Shown: positions 2,619-45,626 of the stretch, one piece after another
How positions within the stretch are numbered: the stretch's first letter is position 1
Layout of the letters: every line of letters starts with the position of its first letter
Source: Actinomycetales bacterium
GTDB lineage: Bacteria; Actinomycetota; Actinomycetes; Actinomycetales; Cellulomonadaceae
Direction: 5' to 3'
DNA length: 64,000 nt
Assembly (NCBI GenBank): GCA_038204895.1
Contig: JBBRCL010000006.1
Span: 6,078 to 70,077, forward strand
Made by a program: the position numbers and the translations under genes
Notes under the pieces: generated by a model
The model's database searches: none
Told to the model about the DNA's origin: nothing
What the model saw: only the letters and a program-made list of their open reading frames with translations

Positions 2619-5939
<3,321 letters not shown>

Positions 5940-35687: not shown

Positions 35688-37247
35688 ATGCCGTTCCACG
35701 CCCCCCGCCGCAGGACGTCGCTGCTGCTGGCGGTCGGGGGAGGGCTCCTCACCGACGCGGGGTTCCCGGGCCTCGGCTGGTGGCCCCTGACCTTCGTCGG
35801 GGTGGCCGCGCTCTTCCTTGCACTCGGCCGCGACAGCGCGCGGTGGAACGCCCTCGTGGGCTTCGTCTTCGGACTCGCGCTCTTCCTGCCGCACATCTCG
35901 TGGGCCGACACCGCCGTCGGGCTGGCACCATGGCTGGCGCTCTCCGTTGCCGAGGCCGGGTTCATGGCGCTGATGGGCGCGGGATGGGCGTGGGCCCGCA
36001 GGGGTGCCGTGATCTGGACGAGTGCCCCGTTGCAGGTGCCGGTCTTCGCGGTGCTCTGGGTCGCGGGGGAGGAGGCGCGCTCGGTTGCTCCCTTCGGTGG
36101 GTTCCCGTGGGCTCGACTCGCCTTCGCCCAAGCCGACTCCCCGCTCGGGTCCTGGGCCTGGGCCGGCGGCGTGCCTCTCGTCTCGATGCTGGTTGCGGTC
36201 GTCGGAGTGCTGCTGGCGCTCGCCGTGATCGCCGTGCGTACCGCCGACATCGCCCAGGTGAGCGCACTGGTGCTGGTGGCCGTCGTCGTGGCTACGTCCG
36301 GGTTGCTGCTGCCGCTGGACACGGCGGCGCAGGCCGGCCGGTTGGTCGTCGGCGCCGTCCAGGGCAACGTGCCCGACCGGGGGCTGGACTCCTTCGACCA
36401 GGCGCGCGAGGTGTTGATGAACCACCTCGCCGGGACATCGGCGTTGCTGAGCCGCGTGCAGCCCGGCGAGCTTGACGTCGTGCTCTGGCCGGAGAACAGC
36501 ACCGACATCGATCCGCGCGCCGACGCCGACGCGGCGGACGCGATCACGGCGGCAGCGCAGGAGGTCGGAGCACCGATCCTGGTCGGAGCCGACAACTACC
36601 CGGCGACCGGGGGTCGGCTGAACACGTCGCTGCTGTGGGACCCGCAGCTCGGCGCGATCGACAGCTACGCCAAGCAGCACCCTGCACCGTTCGGCGAGTA
36701 CATCCCCATGCGCGACATCGCGCGAGCCTTCTCGGACGCGGTCGACCGGGTGCAGACCGACATGGTGCCCGGCACGGAGGCCGGCGTGATCCACCTGCCG
36801 GTCGATCGGCTCGAGCGCATCGTCCCGCTCGGCGTCGGCATCTGCTTCGAGGTGGCCTACGACGACCTGATGCGGAATGCGGTGCAGGCCGGCGCCGAGA
36901 TGATCGTGATCCCCACCAACAACGCGACCTTCGGGCAGACGGACCTCTCCAGCCAGCAGCTGGCCATGTCGCGGATCCGCGCCATCGAGCACGGACGGGC
37001 CACGGTGCAGATCTCGACGGTGGGGGTCAGCGGGGTGATCAGCCCGTCCGGCGTGCTGGTACAGCACACCGGTCACTGGACCGCCGAACAGATGGTCGCG
37101 ACGATCCCACTGCGGACCGAGCTGACGCCCGCCACCCGGTTCGGCGACGCCATCGCCTGGTCGGTTCGTTGCCTTGCCGTCGCGTTCGTCCTCGCCGGGA
37201 TCGGCGGAGCGTTCCGGACCCGGCGCGACGAGCGGATGAAGCCATGA
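35688..37247 (+). CDS. lnt: Apolipoprotein N-acyltransferase
   Basis: PFGGFPW, WPEN, KQHPAPFGEY, ICFEVAYD, PTNNATF; TACCCT 6 nt before ATG. Confidence 0.96.
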   Translation: MPFHAPRRRTSLLLAVGGGLLTDAGFPGLGWWPLTFVGVAALFLALGRDSARWNALVGFVFGLALFLPHISWADTAVGLAPWLALSVAEAGFMALMGAGWAWARRGAVIWTSAPLQVPVFAVLWVAGEEARSVAPFGGFPWARLAFAQADSPLGSWAWAGGVPLVSMLVAVVGVLLALAVIAVRTADIAQVSALVLVAVVVATSGLLLPLDTAAQAGRLVVGAVQGNVPDRGLDSFDQAREVLMNHLAGTSALLSRVQPGELDVVLWPENSTDIDPRADADAADAITAAAQEVGAPILVGADNYPATGGRLNTSLLWDPQLGAIDSYAKQHPAPFGEYIPMRDIARAFSDAVDRVQTDMVPGTEAGVIHLPVDRLERIVPLGVGICFEVAYDDLMRNAVQAGAEMIVIPTNNATFGQTDLSSQQLAMSRIRAIEHGRATVQISTVGVSGVISPSGVLVQHTGHWTAEQMVATIPLRTELTPATRFGDAIAWSVRCLAVAFVLAGIGGAFRTRRDERMKP

Positions 37248-38047
37248 GCGAGCAGCTGGACGCCACTGCCGAGCCGCTCGGTCGAGTGCTGGTCGTCATC
37301 CCCACCTACGACGAGGCGACGACCCTTCCGGGCATCGTCGGGCGGCTCCGGGCCGCCGTACCGGTCGCGGACGTGCTCGTGGTCGATGACGCCAGCCCGG
37401 ACGGCACCGGCCGGATCGCCGACGGCCTGGCCGCGGCGGACGGCGCGGTGCACGTGCTGCACCGGCCAGGCAAGCAGGGCCTCGGTGTCGCCTACGTCGC
37501 GGGGTTCCGGTGGGCCCTCGACCGCGGCTACGACGTGGTCGTGGAGATGGACGCCGACGGATCGCACCAGCCGGAGGAGCTACCTCTGCTGCTCAAGGCC
37601 TTCTCCGGCCCGGGGGCTCCCGACCTGGTGCTCGGCTCCCGGTGGGTGCCCGGCGGTCGGGTGGAGCAGTGGCCCTGGCACCGGGCCCTGCTGTCCAGGG
37701 GCGGCAACACCTACACCCGGCTCGCGATGGGCCTGCCACTTGCCGACGCAACCGGTGGATTTCGGGCATATCGGGCGGGCGCGTTGGCCCAGATGCACCT
37801 GGACGACGTCGCGTCGCACGGCTACTGCTTCCAGGTGGACATGGCCTGGCGCGTGCACCAGGCCGGGGGAGTGATCCGTGAGGTGCCGATCCGGTTCGTC
37901 GAACGGATCGAGGGGCGCTCGAAGATGAGCCGCCGGATCGTCGGCGAGGCGCTCATGCGGGTGACCGTCTGGGGGGTGCAGCGGCGCTGGGCCCAGGTCA
38001 GGGGTGCAGCGGCGCGGCTGACGTCCCGCGCGCTCCGTCGTAGGTGA
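37244..38047 (+). CDS. ppm1: Polyprenol monophosphomannose synthase
   Basis: IPTYDE, VVDDASPDGTG, EMDADGSH, DATGGFRAY, GYCFQVD. Confidence 0.95.
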   Translation: MSEQLDATAEPLGRVLVVIPTYDEATTLPGIVGRLRAAVPVADVLVVDDASPDGTGRIADGLAAADGAVHVLHRPGKQGLGVAYVAGFRWALDRGYDVVVEMDADGSHQPEELPLLLKAFSGPGAPDLVLGSRWVPGGRVEQWPWHRALLSRGGNTYTRLAMGLPLADATGGFRAYRAGALAQMHLDDVASHGYCFQVDMAWRVHQAGGVIREVPIRFVERIEGRSKMSRRIVGEALMRVTVWGVQRRWAQVRGAAARLTSRALRRR

Positions 38048-38392
38048 TCAGGCCGAGCGACGGAGCTTGCCGGCACGCAGCAGCTCCAGGCGCTCGGTGA
38101 GCAGCTCCTCCAGCTCGCCGACGGTGCGACGCTCCAGGAGCATGTCCCAGTGGGTGCGGGGTGACTTCCCGGACTTGGGCTCCGGCCTGTTCGCATCGCG
38201 GAGCAGGGCCTCGGCGCCGCACCGGCACTCCCAGAACACCGGCACGTCCGCCTGGGCGGCGAAGGGCAGCACGATGGTGTGGTCGTTCGGGCAGTCGTAG
38301 TACGCCTCGAAACGCTCGGCGAACTCCACGCCCTCCTCGGACTCCATGCTGTGGGCGCCGATGCGGGTACCCCGCAGTGAGCGGTCTGCCAT
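38048..38392 (-). CDS. rbpA: RNA polymerase-binding protein RbpA
   Basis: MADRSLRG.., WECRCG, RTHWDMLLERR..ELEELLTERLELLR; GGAGG RBS. Confidence 0.96.
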   Translation of the reverse strand: MADRSLRGTRIGAHSMESEEGVEFAERFEAYYDCPNDHTIVLPFAAQADVPVFWECRCGAEALLRDANRPEPKSGKSPRTHWDMLLERRTVGELEELLTERLELLRAGKLRRSA

Positions 38393-38447
38393 GGCGACCT
38401 CCCTTCTGACCGACAGGACTCCCAGGACGGTCTGTCCTTCGTCGTGA

Positions 38448-38474
38448 CAACGCGCAGGCACTCAGTGGTGTTCC
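38448..38474 (-). promoter_or_regulatory. SigR/SigH-type ECF promoter of rbpA
   Basis: GGAAC-N18-GTTG on - strand; rbpA is a known sigmaR target in Streptomyces. Confidence 0.7.
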
Positions 38475-38631: not shown

Positions 38632-38799
38632 GGCGAACAGGCCGCCGGCGGCCGTGGACCCGGTGATGTCGTACGCCGGGAGCCCACCGACGACGTTCGT
38701 CAGAGCCGTGCCGATGCCGGACAACGAGGCGCCGAGCGACATCCTGCGGTACGGGACGCTGACCCGGAGCGGGGACAGATCCATCTTCAGGCGCGGTAT
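38632..38799 (-). pseudogene. 5' remnant of an actinobacterial MFS transporter (EntS/DUF894-like)
   Basis: IPRLKMDLSPLRVSVPYRRMSLGASLSGIGTALTNVVGGLPAYDITGSTAAGGLFA resembles the recalled family N-terminus; similarity then stops. Confidence 0.7.
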
Positions 38800-38822: not shown

Positions 38823-38850
38823 GACGCCGATAATGGACGTTATGTCAGTC
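38823..38850 (+). other. dif-like XerC/XerD recombination site (probable replication terminus)
   Basis: GACGCCGATAA-TGGACG-TTATGTCAGTC (11-6-11); cores GCCGATAA and TTATGTCA match recalled actinobacterial dif. Confidence 0.75.
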
Positions 38851-39117
38851 AGACCCAAGGGGCTGCTGCGCGGGTTTGCCGAGCTGCTCCTCTCCCAGGA
38901 GCTTCGTCCACCGCTCCTCCGTGAGCGACCTGTCGCGTGGCATCGGCATCCGCACACCGGTCGGTGCGTAGCCGGCCCGCCGGTACAGCCGCTCAGCCAC
39001 TGCGTTCCCGTCCATCAGCCACAGCGAGATCAACGCCGCGCCGTCCGTCGTCAGCGCCCGCAGCCTGATCTCGCGCAGCGTCTCCCAGTCGCCCTCGGTC
39101 AGGCGGTCGACGCGCAT
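38845..39117 (-). pseudogene. GNAT acetyltransferase with in-frame internal deletion
   Basis: MRVDRLTEGDWETLREIRLRALTTD joined directly to GAALISLWLMDGNAVAERLYRRAGY; motif A missing; 90 aa. Confidence 0.7.
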
Positions 39118-39200: not shown

Positions 39201-39256
39201 TGGCCCGCTCCCCCAACGTGCCGCTCGGCCGGAGGCACCGAACCCGTGCCGCGCCA

Positions 39257-41803
39257 TCACTGGCACCAGGCCGCCTGCGCAAGGATGTCGGAGCACACCT
39301 CCATGCCGGACGGCGCCGCGACATGGATCACGTCGGCGAACTGCGCACCCTCGGGCGACAGGGACCCCACCAGGTTCGGCAGGTCGAGCACCCGCTCCGG
39401 ACGGAAGTTCACGCCACCCTGACCATCGAAGATCGCGACGTAGAAGATCCCGGACTCCACGAGGTCCTGGAAGAAGTGGCTGCCATAGGACAGCTCCGGG
39501 GAGAACCCGGCCTCCTGTGACGCCACCTCACCGATGACCGCCATGTTGCACAGCTCAGCGAACCGCAACGGCACTCCCAGCGCGGGGGTCGTGGTGCCCC
39601 AGCGGCCGGGGCCGAGGAGCATCATGGTCTTGTCGCTGAGCGCGCTGTTCAGCTTGCCGATGTGGCGGGCGACCGCGTACCGCTGCTGGTCGCTGAGCGC
39701 CAGGTACGCGTGCGGGCGCACGTAGATCACGAAGTCGAGCGGGATCCGCACGTTCCCGCCCATGAAGTTGCCCTTGGTGCAGAACAGGCACGTGCCCGGG
39801 TCTGTCGGCAGCAGCGCCGCGACGGCCGCGCCCAGTCCTCTGGTCTGCAGCGGGCGGCATTGCAGGATGTTCAGCCGGAAGTCGCCATCCGGGCCGAAGT
39901 TGGCGGTGAACTCCACGTCGACCGGGTAGGCGTAGGCCGCGGACAGCAGGGCAAGGACATCCTTCATCAAAGCCGGGAACTCGGTCTCGGCGAGCAGTCC
40001 GTGGAAGTCAAGGATGTGCGACAGGCCGACGTCGCCGCGCCCCATCTCCCGTGCTCGTGTCGCTGCGTGGCTGTCGACGCTGGCAAACAGCGCCACGTCG
40101 GCCTTCAGATCGGAGATGACCTCCTCGTACTTGCGGCTCCCCCAGGCGTTCTCCCTGAGCGAGAGCACGTCGACACCTCGTTGGGAGTACTTCTTCTCGT
40201 CCCCGTAGCTCATCGGGGGCAGCCGCAGCGGATCGTCCAGGCACACGATCTTCGCGTAGTCGCCGACCGTCCGGTCGACCGCTCTGGTCCCGAGCCCGAA
40301 GACCAGCCGGAGCATCCCGGCCTCCATGTCGACGTCGTCGGACCAGATGTAGAGGTTGGAGGAGTTGCCGACGCCCGCCACGTGCGGGAAGTAGTCCTCG
40401 TCGTGCTGGTCGCCGGACACCCGCTGGACCAGGATGGCCATCTGCTCGTCCCGCTCCAGGAGTCCACGGTTGCTCCGGTAGTCCAGTGCCTCCTCGCTCA
40501 TCGCGCTGGCATAGACCTCCCTGACCGCGTCCTCGAAGGCTCGGTAGCGCTCCTCAGGGCTCCCCTGGTTGACGCAGAAGATGCTCTCGTACTTGCCGGC
40601 GAAGGCATTGCCGAAGTCGTCCTCCAGCAGTGAGCTGGACCGGACGATGATGGGTGACTGGCCGAAGTACTCGAGCATCTCGACGAACTGCTCACGGATG
40701 TCGGTCGGGAACGCCCCGTGCAGCAGCTTCTCCCTAAGCTCCGGCGCGTGCGTGTAGTAGCCCTCCGGGGTCCGCTGCTTCGCGCGGAGCGGCCACCAGC
40801 CGTTCTGCACGATGTAGGTGTAGAAGATGTCGGACCCGAGGTAGTACGAGTCGTGCGGCTCCATGCGACCGGTGAGCCCCGGCCCGCCGTCATGGTCCAA
40901 GACCCGCCTGGCGAGGAGCATCCCGACGCTCTTGCCGCCGATGAGCCCGGTGCCAACCTCTCGTGACGCGATGGCGAGGATGTCGGCGAGGGTGAAGTAC
41001 CGGTCGCACAGATCGAGCATCCGGGTCGACCCGCCGATCAGCATGCGCATCAGCGACGTCTTGACGGGCTCCTGCTGCTCGGGCGGAAGAGCCAGTGCGT
41101 CGCGGGCCTGGTCGAAGGCGACGTTCCAGTGATCGATCCGGTCGCCCTGGCGCGGGATGCTCGAGAACAGCTCGGCGGCCTCCGAGCTCGCGGTGATGCA
41201 GATGGCCTCGTCGCCCCGGATCAGGTTGGGGAAGAACATGGTCGGCGAGTAGCGCCGCCACACCTTGAGCGGATGGATGTAGGTGTTTCCGGCCACCCGA
41301 TAGAGGTCGAGGAGCAGCTGGGTCGTCTCGCGGACGGTCGCGATGGTCGCGTAGGTGTGAGTGCCGCGCACGATGGCGAAGTAGGCGATGGTGTCCAACT
41401 CGTACAGGAACGGACAGGTCACCTTGAAGAAGTTGCCGATCATCAGGTCGGAGTGCCAGTACTGCAGGAGGTCGGTCAGGCAGTCGAAGACGTAGAACGC
41501 CCCCTTGCCGTGTCGCTCAGCCAGGTTGTGCACCTCGGTGGCGAAGATCTCGAACCCTTGGGTCGGGTCGACCTGGCAGACCGCCGTGCCGGGGCCGTCT
41601 TCCAGCAGCGGCTCGTGGCTGCCGAACCGGACGTAGACCAGCCGCCGGCCGTCGGCCCTGGCCTGCGCGACGTAGGGGTCGACCATCTGCTTGTAGTCGA
41701 GCACCGAGTCGACCTGCCAGACGACGTTGTCGCCGAGGCGGAGACCGTCGATCACCTGATCGAATCCCGACGAGCCGGTGCTGACCCGGTCACCCGTGCC
41801 CAT
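39257..41803 (-). CDS. KaiC/RecA-like N-domain plus PEP/pyruvate-binding (PPDK_N ATP-grasp) protein, function unknown
   Basis: RVSTGSSGFDQVIDGL; IGGKSVG, IIVRSSSLLEDDFGNAFAGKYES, FGLGTRAV, DVEF..LQCRP; GAGGAG RBS; 848 aa. Confidence 0.85.
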   Translation of the reverse strand: MGTGDRVSTGSSGFDQVIDGLRLGDNVVWQVDSVLDYKQMVDPYVAQARADGRRLVYVRFGSHEPLLEDGPGTAVCQVDPTQGFEIFATEVHNLAERHGKGAFYVFDCLTDLLQYWHSDLMIGNFFKVTCPFLYELDTIAYFAIVRGTHTYATIATVRETTQLLLDLYRVAGNTYIHPLKVWRRYSPTMFFPNLIRGDEAICITASSEAAELFSSIPRQGDRIDHWNVAFDQARDALALPPEQQEPVKTSLMRMLIGGSTRMLDLCDRYFTLADILAIASREVGTGLIGGKSVGMLLARRVLDHDGGPGLTGRMEPHDSYYLGSDIFYTYIVQNGWWPLRAKQRTPEGYYTHAPELREKLLHGAFPTDIREQFVEMLEYFGQSPIIVRSSSLLEDDFGNAFAGKYESIFCVNQGSPEERYRAFEDAVREVYASAMSEEALDYRSNRGLLERDEQMAILVQRVSGDQHDEDYFPHVAGVGNSSNLYIWSDDVDMEAGMLRLVFGLGTRAVDRTVGDYAKIVCLDDPLRLPPMSYGDEKKYSQRGVDVLSLRENAWGSRKYEEVISDLKADVALFASVDSHAATRAREMGRGDVGLSHILDFHGLLAETEFPALMKDVLALLSAAYAYPVDVEFTANFGPDGDFRLNILQCRPLQTRGLGAAVAALLPTDPGTCLFCTKGNFMGGNVRIPLDFVIYVRPHAYLALSDQQRYAVARHIGKLNSALSDKTMMLLGPGRWGTTTPALGVPLRFAELCNMAVIGEVASQEAGFSPELSYGSHFFQDLVESGIFYVAIFDGQGGVNFRPERVLDLPNLVGSLSPEGAQFADVIHVAAPSGMEVCSDILAQAAWCQ

Positions 41804-41916
41804 GTCGCTCCTCTGCTGGCGGATCGGTGCCTGCCGGGGATGACGATGCCACAGTGGCGGGCGTTCGGTCGGGTCCCTGTGACCGAGCTCCGCACCTGGG
41901 GTGGCAGGCTGGGCGC

Positions 41917-42204
41917 ATGGCCGACAGCTCCCCCGATCCCGACCGCTCGCTCGCATCGTCCGCCGACGAGACCACCTCAGGCTCCGAGCCGACGAATCGC
42001 TCCCTCACCCACCGCTGGTGGTGGCAAGCAGTGGTGATCGCGGTGACCGGCGCCGCGATCATCGGCTTCCAGTGGGAGGTCATCTCCCAAGGCGAGTCCA
42101 TCGTGGCCACCTGGGTGATGGTCGGCATCGGCGCGGTGGCCGTCGTCGCGGGCGCGGTGGTCGCCTGGCGTTCCCGGCCGGGTCGCTCGCAGCAGGACGG
42201 CTGA
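41917..42204 (+). CDS. Small two-TM membrane protein
   Basis: Acidic Ser/Thr-rich N-tail, two hydrophobic helices; CAGGCT 6 nt before ATG. Confidence 0.65.
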   Translation: MADSSPDPDRSLASSADETTSGSEPTNRSLTHRWWWQAVVIAVTGAAIIGFQWEVISQGESIVATWVMVGIGAVAVVAGAVVAWRSRPGRSQQDG

Positions 42205-42227: not shown

Positions 42228-45200
42228 TCAGGCGATGACCATCACCAGGTCGCCGCCCTCGAGCTGCTGGACCGGACCGATCGCCAACCGTCGGATGGTC
42301 CCGCCGACCGGCGTCGTGATGCTCGCCTCCATCTTCATCGCCTCGATGGTCGCGACGATCTGGCCGACCTGGACCGTCTGCCCCTCCTGCACCACGGGAG
42401 TGACGGCGCCGGCGAACGGAGCGGCGATCTGGCCGAGGGTGCCGGGGTCCGCTTTCTCAGCGGCAGCCTGGTCGACCTCGACGGACCGGTCCCGGACCTG
42501 GATCGGCCGCAGCTGACCGTTCAGGGTGAACATCACCGTGCGCATGCCGCGCTCGTCCGGCTCTCCGATCGCCTCCAGGCCGAGCAGCAGGCGCACGCCC
42601 CGGTCGAGGATCACCTCGACCTCCGTCGAGGGGGTCATCCCGTACAGGTAGCTCTCGGTGTCGAGCAGACTGACGTCGCCGTAGCTCGCCCGCACCTGCT
42701 GGAAGTCCTTGGTCGGGCCGGGGAACAGCAGATGGTTCAGCCGGTCCCTCCTGGTTGCGGAGTCGCCATCCAGGTCGGCCCGGTCCTGGTCGGTCAGGGC
42801 CGCCTGCTCCCGGCGAGGTGACCGGCCGCGCAGGGCCCGGGTGCGGAACGGCTCGGGCCAGCCCCCAGGAGGTGCGCCGAGCTCCCCGCCGAGGAAGCCG
42901 ATCACCGAGTCGGGCACGTCGTAGTCCTGCGGGTGGGTCGCGAAGTGGGCCGGATCCGCGCCTCGCGCGACAAGGTGCAGGGCCAGATCGCCGACCACCT
43001 TGCTGGACGGGGTGACCTTGACCAGCCGGCCCAGGATCTTGTCGGCGGCCGCGTACATCGCCTCGATCTCCTCGAACCTGTCCCCCAGGCCCAGCGCGAT
43101 CGCCTGCTGACGCAGGTTGGAGAGCTGCCCACCAGGGATCTCGTGGTCGTAGACCCGGCCGGTCGGGCCCGGCAGGCCCGACTCGAACGGCCGGTACAGC
43201 CGTCGCACGGCCTCCCAGTAGGGCTCCAGGTCGCATACCGCCCGCAGGCTCAGCCGGGTGTCGCGCTCGGTGTGCGCCATGGCCGCGACCAGCGCGGACA
43301 TCGGCGGCTGGCTGGTCGTGCCGGCCATCGCCGCACTGGCGACGTCGACGGCGTCGACCCCGGCGTCGATGGCCGCCAGGAGGGTCGCCATCTGCCCGCC
43401 GGCGGTGTCGTGGGTATGCAGGTGGATCGGCAGGTCGAACCGCTCCCGCAGCGCGGTCACCAAGGTGCGCGCCGCGGGCGGGCGGAGCAGGCCGGCCATG
43501 TCCTTGATCGCCAGGATGTGGGCGCCGGACGCCACGATCTGCTCCGCGAGGCGCAGGTAGTAGTCCAGGGTGTACAGACCCTCACGCGGGTCGCTCAGGT
43601 CGGCGGTGTAGCACAGCGCGACCTCGGCCAGCGGCACGCCCACGTCGCGCACGGCGTCGATCGCCGGCCGCATCTGCTCGACGTCGTTCAGCGAGTCGAA
43701 GATCCGGAAGATGTCGACGCCGGTGGCCGCCGCCTCCCGCACGAAGGCCTGCGTGACCTCCGTGGGGTACGGGGTGTAGCCGACGGTGTTCTGTCCGCGC
43801 AGCAGCATCTGCAGCGCGACGTTCGGCATCGCCTCACGCACGGCCGCGAGCCGCTCCCACGGGTCCTCGCCGAGGAACCGGAGGGCGACGTCGTAGGTCG
43901 CCCCGCCCCAGGTCTCGACGCTCAGCAGCCCACCGGTCATCCGGGCGACGTACGGGGCGACCTCGAGGAGGTCGTACGTGCGCACCCGAGTGGCGAGCAG
44001 GGACTGATGGGCGTCCCGGAAGGTCGTGTCGGTGACCGCGACGGCGGTCTGCTCGCGCAGGGCGCGGGCGAACCCCTCCGGCCCGAGCTCGAGCAGCCGT
44101 TGGCGACTGCCCGGGGCGGCCGGCTGTGCGAGATCGGCCACTGGCAGCTTGGCGCCAGGGCGTGGCAACCCGTTCGGTGGACCGTTCGGTCGGTTGACCG
44201 TGACATCACCGAGGTAGGTGAGCAGCTTCGTCCCCCGGTCGGCGCTGAACTTGGCGACCAGCAGCTGCGGTCGCTCCTCGATGAACGAGGTGGACAGGTT
44301 CCCCTCGACGAACTCGCTGTCGGCCAGCACGGCCTGCAGGAACGAGATGTTGCTACGGACACCACGGATCCGGAACTCGGCCAACGCGCGTCGAGCACGG
44401 CGGACGGCCGTCGGGAAGTCCCGTCCACGGCAGGTGAGCTTGACCAGCATCGAGTCGAAGTGGCCGGTGACCTCCGAACCCACGCTTGCGGTGGCACCGT
44501 CCAGGCGGATCCCCGCACCGCCGGGTGAGCGGTAGGCGACGATCCGGCCGGTGTCCGGGCGGAAGCCGTTGGACGGGTCCTCCGTGGTGATCCGGCACTG
44601 CAGGGCCGCGCCGTTCACCCGCACGGTGTCCTGGGAGATGCCGAGGTCGGCGAGCGTCTCCCCCGCTGCGATCCGCATCTGGGAGGACACCAGGTCGACG
44701 TCGGTGACCTCCTCCGTCACCGTGTGCTCCACCTGGATGCGAGGGTTCATCTCGATGAAGACGTGCTGGCCGGCCCGCTCCCCCACCGTGTCGACGAGGA
44801 ACTCGACGGTCCCGGCATTGACATGACCGATACTCCGCGCGAACGTCACCGCGTCGCGGCACAGGGCGTCCCGGATCGCCGGGTCCAGGTTCGGGGCCGG
44901 CGCGATCTCGATCACCTTCTGATGCCGCCGCTGCACCGAGCAGTCCCGCTCGAACAGGTGGACGACCTCGCCGGTCGCGTCAGCCAGGATTTGCACCTCG
45001 ATGTGCCGAGGGCGGACCACGGCCCGCTCCAGGAAGACCGTCGGGTCACCGAAGGCGCCGTCCGCCTCCCGCATGGCGGCCCGGAGGGCGGCCGGCAGGT
45101 CGCCGGGGGCCTCGACCCGGCGCATGCCGCGTCCTCCGCCGCCGGAGACCGCCTTGACGAACAGGGGGAAGCCGACGTCCGCGGCGGACGCAAGGAGCGC

Positions 45201-45626
45201 CTCGACGTCGGCCGACGGCTCCGACGACGGGAGGACGGGGATCCCCGCCTGCCGGGCTGCACGCAGGGCACGGACCTTGTTGCCCGCCATCTCCAGCACC
45301 TCGGGCGACGGCCCGATGAAGGTGATGCCGGCCTCGGCGCACGCACGAGCGAGCTCCGGGTTCTCCGACAGGAAGCCGTAACCCGGGTACACGGCGTCCG
45401 ACTCGGATTCCCGGGCCACCCGGATGATCTCGGCGATGTCCAGGTAGGCCCGGACCGGATGACCAGGCTCCCCGATCGGGTAGGCCTCGTCGGCCTTCAG
45501 CCGGTGCTCGGAGTTGCGGTCCTCGTACGGGAAGACCGCGACGGTGCGCGCGCCCAGCTCGACCGCGGCCCGGAAACCTCGGACAGCGATCTCCGCACGG
45601 TTGGCGACGAGCACCTTGGAGAACAC
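42228..45626 (-). CDS. pyc: Pyruvate carboxylase
   Basis: MFSKVLVANRAEIAVR, RDCSVQRRHQK, FRDAHQS, HTHD, EAMKME biotin site; 1132 aa. Confidence 0.98.
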   Translation of the reverse strand: MFSKVLVANRAEIAVRGFRAAVELGARTVAVFPYEDRNSEHRLKADEAYPIGEPGHPVRAYLDIAEIIRVARESESDAVYPGYGFLSENPELARACAEAGITFIGPSPEVLEMAGNKVRALRAARQAGIPVLPSSEPSADVEALLASAADVGFPLFVKAVSGGGGRGMRRVEAPGDLPAALRAAMREADGAFGDPTVFLERAVVRPRHIEVQILADATGEVVHLFERDCSVQRRHQKVIEIAPAPNLDPAIRDALCRDAVTFARSIGHVNAGTVEFLVDTVGERAGQHVFIEMNPRIQVEHTVTEEVTDVDLVSSQMRIAAGETLADLGISQDTVRVNGAALQCRITTEDPSNGFRPDTGRIVAYRSPGGAGIRLDGATASVGSEVTGHFDSMLVKLTCRGRDFPTAVRRARRALAEFRIRGVRSNISFLQAVLADSEFVEGNLSTSFIEERPQLLVAKFSADRGTKLLTYLGDVTVNRPNGPPNGLPRPGAKLPVADLAQPAAPGSRQRLLELGPEGFARALREQTAVAVTDTTFRDAHQSLLATRVRTYDLLEVAPYVARMTGGLLSVETWGGATYDVALRFLGEDPWERLAAVREAMPNVALQMLLRGQNTVGYTPYPTEVTQAFVREAAATGVDIFRIFDSLNDVEQMRPAIDAVRDVGVPLAEVALCYTADLSDPREGLYTLDYYLRLAEQIVASGAHILAIKDMAGLLRPPAARTLVTALRERFDLPIHLHTHDTAGGQMATLLAAIDAGVDAVDVASAAMAGTTSQPPMSALVAAMAHTERDTRLSLRAVCDLEPYWEAVRRLYRPFESGLPGPTGRVYDHEIPGGQLSNLRQQAIALGLGDRFEEIEAMYAAADKILGRLVKVTPSSKVVGDLALHLVARGADPAHFATHPQDYDVPDSVIGFLGGELGAPPGGWPEPFRTRALRGRSPRREQAALTDQDRADLDGDSATRRDRLNHLLFPGPTKDFQQVRASYGDVSLLDTESYLYGMTPSTEVEVILDRGVRLLLGLEAIGEPDERGMRTVMFTLNGQLRPIQVRDRSVEVDQAAAEKADPGTLGQIAAPFAGAVTPVVQEGQTVQVGQIVATIEAMKMEASITTPVGGTIRRLAIGPVQQLEGGDLVMVIA

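Follow-up and report, generated by a model that had tools for sequence, protein, structure and literature searches.

The DNA analysed here (the window) is a stretch of 64,000 nucleotides, bases 6078-70077 of contig C6 in a draft actinobacterial genome, and it contains a sequence resembling dif, the XerC/XerD chromosome dimer resolution site. The question raised by this locus is whether the sequence is the functional dif of the chromosome, a true dif with a damaged XerD arm, or a relic left by an element that exploits the Xer recombinases. The original prediction had described the site as a dif with a clipped XerD arm near a switch of gene strand, and had proposed the true terminus dif or a damaged att-like copy as alternatives. 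The genome is a 2.88 Mb draft of 147 unordered contigs that is 95% complete, with 3.8% contamination and 72% G+C.

Sequence and uniqueness of the site

The sequence GACGCCGATAATGGACGTTATGTCAGTC is present exactly as described at positions 38823..38850 of the + strand. It is composed of a left arm, GACGCCGATAA (38823..38833, +), a 6-bp central region, TGGACG (38834..38839, +), and a right arm, TTATGTCAGTC (38840..38850, +). This is the layout of dif, in which two 11-bp arms with partial dyad symmetry (..ATAA / TTAT..) flank a 6-bp central region. By analogy with the E. coli dif, the left and right arms are the putative XerC- and XerD-binding arms, respectively, and the known Xer mechanism suggests that the central region serves in strand exchange. 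The TTATGTCA part of the right arm is conserved, whereas its last three nucleotides (GTC) are variable.

No second dif-like site was found in the window at three or fewer mismatches, and the number expected by chance is zero (0 of 100 shuffles matched at this threshold). The pattern ATAA-N6-TTATGT has a single match in the 147 contigs, which is the window site. With a weight matrix built on the sites of 29 relatives, the window site scores 46.3 bits and the runner-up in the draft 15.8 bits, so the search for another dif that had been proposed as a check returned none in the 95% of the genome that the draft covers. The relatives' own sites score 38.7-53.7 bits on this matrix (median 49.3), a range that includes the window site.

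Conservation in relatives and in the phylum

The pattern ATAA-N6-TTATGTC was found in 34 of 41 related genomes, and as a single copy in 30 of those; the reversed control pattern had no matches in the related genomes. In the alignment of the relatives' sites, GCCGATAA-N6-TTATGTCA is near-invariant, the conservation of ATAA and TTATGTC being partly by construction because both were fixed by the search pattern. The outer bases of the left arm, which were not imposed by the search, are GCCG in 27 and ACCG in 2 of the 29 relatives, and the A at position 25 is invariant although the search did not impose this position. The central region of the relatives' sites reads TGGACA, GGGACA, GGGACG and similar. 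The outer three nucleotides of the two arms (GAC...GTC in the window site) show no palindromic covariation among the relatives, and their symmetry in the window site is therefore a coincidence.

A 23-nt core, CGCCGATAATGGACRTTATGTCA, was found exactly once in each of 80 records that span a wide range of Actinomycetota, among them Kribbella, Nocardioides, Geodermatophilus, Actinomyces, Micrococcus and Acidimicrobiia.

Location at the replication terminus

The distance between dnaA and dif was measured in three relatives with single-contig chromosomes. In G014, which belongs to the same genus, dnaA lies at 304 and dif at 1,746,246 on a chromosome of 3,546,809 bp; in G025, dnaA lies at 122 and dif at 1,609,311 on 3,095,448 bp; and in G029, dnaA lies at 1,398,098 and dif at 509,195 on 1,830,060 bp. 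The distances amount to 49.2%, 52.0% and 48.6% of the chromosome, respectively.

GC skew was computed per contig, the 147 contigs being unordered. To the left of the site C6 has a skew of +0.032 and to its right one of -0.017, and the cumulative maximum lies at window position 38300. Where exactly the sign changes is poorly defined: there is a plateau between 38 and 46 kb, and a division into two segments fits best at window position ~46.3 kb. C6 is among the few long contigs with a change of skew sign at a magnitude typical of the genome's contigs. The 20-kb skew around the relatives' dif sites is also weak; it is higher on the left than on the right in 8 of 8 congeners, with values of 0.00-0.04. 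Motif polarity is a much sharper marker of the terminus than GC skew.

Strand-biased octamers were searched de novo after the other contigs had been oriented by the sign of their skew, with C6 excluded from learning. The most strand-biased octamers all contain GGGGGAG and lie on the leading strand in 86-94% of cases. On C6, GGGGGAG has 13 copies on the + strand and 0 on the - strand left of the site, and 0 and 10 copies, respectively, right of it (Fisher p = 9e-7). A clean convergent switch of this kind was found on C6 only in the assembly. When the motif was extended to RGGGGAG, the window contained 24 copies between 652 and 62718, of which 11 left of the site (all at or before 37871) are on the + strand and 13 right of it (all at or after 39208) are on the - strand. 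The last rightward GGGGGAG before dif is at 37865..37871 (+) and the first leftward one after it at 39208..39214 (-), so that the site is bracketed within 1.3 kb. Octamer polarity, which had been named as a check on the site, thus converges on it.

The same convergent pattern of GGGGGAG was observed in each of ten relatives within 20 kb on each side of dif. Summed over the eight relatives of the same genus, the counts of the two orientations are 62/1 on the left and 1/66 on the right. In 80 dif loci across the Actinomycetota, 321 of 325 copies of GGGGGAG and 86 of 91 copies of AGGGGAG point toward dif, and the density of the motif is about three times that genome-wide. In the draft genome, GGGGGAG is present in 525 copies (1 per 5.5 kb), 89% of them on the majority strand of their contig. 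The 24 copies of RGGGGAG in the window compare with 36 in shuffles, and copies in the wrong orientation therefore appear to have been purged from the window.

The polarity of RGGGGAG throughout the phylum gives a somewhat better than even chance that this motif is the FtsK-orienting sequence of the Actinomycetota, equivalent to KOPS, with the site as its focal point. A literature search found no paper in which GGGGGAG is named with KOPS or FtsK; lists of architecture-imparting octamers may contain the motif. Its near-perfect polarity is the most useful product of the analysis, as it provides a cheap locator of the terminus in fragmented actinobacterial assemblies and a candidate target of the FtsK gamma domain.

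Three contigs of the same assembly (C17, C18 and C19) differ from nearly all the others in carrying GGGGGAG on both strands in mixed order (for example C18: +----+++++--). This may be due to rearrangements, islands, misassemblies or contaminant DNA.

Gene neighbourhood of the site

Left of the site, the window contains lnt (35688..37247, +; PF20154 and PF00795), which encodes an apolipoprotein N-acyltransferase, and a ppm1-like gene (about 37247..38047, +; PF00535, E 4.5e-28), which encodes a family-2 glycosyltransferase and is the last + gene before the strand switch. It is followed by rbpA (38048..38461, -; PF13397, E 1e-39), which encodes an RNA polymerase-binding protein and is the conserved left neighbour of dif. 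Right of the site are a gene for an 899-aa protein with a PPDK_N domain (39257..41956, -) and the pyruvate carboxylase gene pyc (42228..45626, -). The PPDK_N protein is 59-64% identical to proteins encoded to the right of dif at the loci L011, L015 and L025. Among the relatives, dif has a constant orientation, with rbpA on its left in 8 and, on its right, pyc in 9, the PPDK_N protein gene in 3 and a GNAT acetyltransferase gene in 10. These shared neighbours and the constant orientation show that the location of the site and its direction are ancestral traits of the genus.

The two genes that touch dif are deletion remnants. The remnant on the left (38635..38784, -) preserves ~50 codons from the start of an MFS_3 transporter gene; over 49-50 aa its product shares 73-75% identity with the N-termini of proteins encoded at L006, L018, L025 and L015. 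The intact orthologue, which adjoins dif in G011, is a protein of 427 aa that matches PF05977. The remnant on the right (38845..39117, -) has 90 codons and belongs to the GNAT acetyltransferase gene. The remnant aligns through its first ~27 and last ~60 residues with the ends of an intact protein of ~164 aa and lacks about 76-87 residues from the centre, in frame. The intact orthologue in G019 (L011) has 164 aa and matches the Pfam family Acetyltransf_1 (PF00583). Neither remnant itself gave a match in Pfam or NCBIfam; both were identified by tblastn to relatives and by scans of the intact orthologues. The gene content directly beside dif varies among Cellulomonas species, and at 2.9 Mb the genome is smaller than is usual in the genus (3.2-4.4 Mb).

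A GNAT remnant with its stop codon inside the XerD arm had been claimed, and the 90-codon open reading frame read from 39117 to 38845 on the - strand bears this out. The conserved TCA at 38845-38847 in the right arm, read on the opposite strand, is the TGA stop of this frame, and positions 26-28 of the site form its last sense codon. The same overlap of stop codon and dif, with the last codon provided by positions 26-28, is also present in G015 and G011 (loci L015 and L025).

The ppm1-like gene and rbpA are convergent, and the gene strand switches between them at 38047/38048, about 775 bp left of the site. In a rough, GC3-based gene call with an incomplete list, 22 genes are on the + and 3 on the - strand left of 38047, and 14 are on the - and 0 on the + strand from 38048 to 54.7 kb, followed by 5-6 genes on the + strand. 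The claimed switch of gene strand therefore stands, whereas its exact counts (32 of 37 and 14 of 15) were only roughly checked. The last six + genes had been thought to weaken the pattern. This concern falls away, because RGGGGAG keeps its - orientation to 62.7 kb and the replichore thus reaches the end of the window; the six genes are merely lagging-strand genes and mark no second switch. A genomic island at 38-42 kb, where G+C is lower, was considered and rejected, as the 899-aa gene has a native-like GC3 of 0.91 and is syntenic in relatives.

The unique site, the orthologues located 48.6-52.0% of the chromosome away from dnaA, the synteny and the convergence of RGGGGAG and skew strongly support the first of the two originally proposed alternatives, the true terminus dif. 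The sequence is accordingly predicted, with a probability of about 95%, to be the functional chromosomal dif of a Cellulomonas genome (Cellulomonadaceae) at its replication terminus. It is an ordinary and intact dif that is typical for the genus and of a kind already known.

The outer end of the XerD arm

The closest competitor of this reading also takes the site for a true dif and holds that a 1-bp deletion (CAAGT to CAGT) has damaged the XerD arm and weakened XerD binding or FtsK activation. Relative to the Frankia alni site CACGCCGATAATGCACATTATGTCAAGT, which has been used as the seed of actinobacterial predictions, the ending of the arm can indeed be expressed as one missing A. The AAGT-type ending that had been taken as the actinobacterial pattern is that of this seed site and is no consensus of the phylum. 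It was found in 0 of 21 other Cellulomonas species, where the endings are ATTC (6 species), ATTA (3), AGTT (3), AATC (2), AGTC (1) and six others (once each), and is therefore not ancestral in the genus. In the 80 actinobacterial sites it is a minority form, with 11 sites ending in AAGT, 23 in AACT and 2 in AGTC.

Position 26 is A in 44, G in 20, T in 11 and C in 5 of the 80 sites, and the G of the window site is shared by 5 of the 21 congeners. At least four other genomes carry the identical arm, TTATGTCAGTC: G007 of the same genus, G028 and two Actinomycetales MAGs (loci L023, L027, L058 and L062). Positions 26-28 are unconserved and under little constraint in the lineage. As they vary freely and the same arm occurs elsewhere, a one-base deletion is unnecessary to explain the ending. 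The GNAT frame also crosses these positions in the same register in the present genome (G000) and in G015 and G011, and the score of 46.3 bits lies within the range of the orthologues. Loss of a base from the arm is therefore very unlikely, and the claim of a clipped arm is abandoned in favour of an intact dif. In practice, the outer three bases of an actinobacterial XerD arm are unsuited for judging a site.

Evidence on a relic or a chance sequence

Under a further explanation, the site would be the relic attachment site of an Xer-integrating element (IMEX), and the working dif would lie elsewhere. The remnant state of both genes touching the site fits such an origin, as does the occurrence of Xer-associated elements in the genus (secondary sites in G018 and G020, and an alternative left junction in G006). 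Against it, the searches gave no second site in the window and nothing above 15.8 bits in the draft, and the position is syntenic with the dif of the relatives. No element genes adjoin the site, rbpA and the genes for the PPDK_N protein and pyruvate carboxylase have a native codon bias, and neither foreign genes nor a break in gene order were found beside it. The polar motifs, moreover, converge on the site itself, within the 1.3-kb bracket. A relic is thus highly improbable, and the suggested damaged att-like copy of an Xer-exploiting element does not hold for this locus. That the sequence arose by chance as an AT-rich palindrome-like stretch, or is the site of an unrelated regulator, found nothing in its favour and is scarcely credible in view of the zero matches expected by chance, the conservation across the phylum, the single copy in most related genomes and the location at the terminus.

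For the window's genome, there is therefore no longer any reason to suspect a dif that is damaged or parasitised. The site marks the replication terminus in a draft Cellulomonas assembly, which is of use for the orientation of contigs and for reading the strand bias of the window.

Xer recombinases, FtsK and proposed mechanism

The draft genome encodes XerD on contig C146 (3058-3945, -), above the cut-off of TIGR02225. A second XerD-like gene, also above the XerD equivalog cut-off, is split at contig ends between C72 (6-770, -) and C48 (19874-20137, -), the putative join of the two halves being based on an identical overlap of 46 residues. The two XerD-like proteins are 64.5% identical, and the second gene is either a paralogue or contamination or a second strain in the MAG, for which 3.8% contamination is estimated. 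A XerC-like protein encoded on C7 has its best match to TIGR02224 (XerC), with a score of 293.8 that is below the equivalog cut-off of 335. An FtsK gamma domain (82.6 bits) is encoded within an open frame of 921 aa on C7.

In E. coli, XerC binds the left arm of dif and XerD the right arm, and FtsK follows polar motifs. If the system in Cellulomonas works in the same way, XerC would bind the left arm of the window site and XerD the right arm, and septal FtsK, guided by the polar motifs, would translocate to the XerCD-dif complex. The gamma domain of FtsK would then activate XerD, which would carry out the first exchange of strands, and XerC would finish the exchange across TGGACG, by which chromosome dimers would be resolved.

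Comparison with known dif sites

Hendrickson and Lawrence reportedly predicted a dif for Frankia alni in 2007. The window site and this F. alni sequence are both 28 bp long and are identical at positions 2-13, 15-16 and 18-25; they differ at position 1, at positions 14 and 17 of the central region and at the three outermost bases of the XerD arm, all of which are variable among the relatives. Like the predicted actinobacterial dif sites, the window site is a single copy at the terminus. In the survey of Kono et al. (2011, BMC Genomics 12:19; PMC3025954), dif was predicted in 66 of 66 Actinobacteria with CACGCCGATAATGCACATTATGTCAAGT of F. alni as the seed, and no actinobacterial dif had been experimentally confirmed at that time. 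A later experimental confirmation was not found in a non-exhaustive literature search.

The window site shares with the E. coli dif the two 11-bp arms around a 6-bp centre. Its right TTATGTCA matches the E. coli TTATGTTA at 7 of 8 positions, and its left GCCGATAA matches GCGCATAA at 6 of 8. The likeness extends to the XerCD/FtsK-KOPS system, as XerC, XerD and FtsK-gamma are encoded and G-rich polar motifs converge on the site. The differences are that the polar motif is RGGGGAG here and GGGNAGGG in E. coli, that the outer arm bases differ, and that the system of the window's lineage is predicted from sequence. Attachment sites of IMEX and dif-like sites of plasmids (cer/pdif-type) have an Xer-type core in common with the window site; however, they are additional or duplicated copies located on mobile DNA or next to it, whereas the window has one site, in a conserved housekeeping neighbourhood and at the polarity switch.

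Xer-associated DNA in other genomes

In the Cellulomonas MAG G006, three contig ends lie at dif (C13:21-37, C24:77-93 and C135:94-110; loci L137-L139). These ends have dif and ~100 nt of the right flank in common and carry two different left flanks. The alternative flank, on C135, contains a tyrosine-recombinase-like open reading frame and has GCC in place of TCC in the outer XerC arm. Part of the population seems to carry an insertion of an element at dif.

Secondary dif-like sites were identified in G018 on contigs C119 (L142, ~3738-3754) and C292 (L141), and in G020 on contig C10 (46268-46284; L140). They have divergent left arms and centres, with the forms CAYACCGATAA-N6-TTATGTCAACC followed by GGTTGAC, and AGTTCCGATAA-CTTACG-TTATGTCGGAC. 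A gene encoding a 395-aa ATPase is common to G018:C119 and G020:C10; a Lsr2-like gene is also found beside the site in G018 and a relaxase-like gene in G020. These are probably the Xer sites of plasmids or integrative elements. The mobile Xer-associated DNA of G006, G018 and G020 is irrelevant to the genome of the window.
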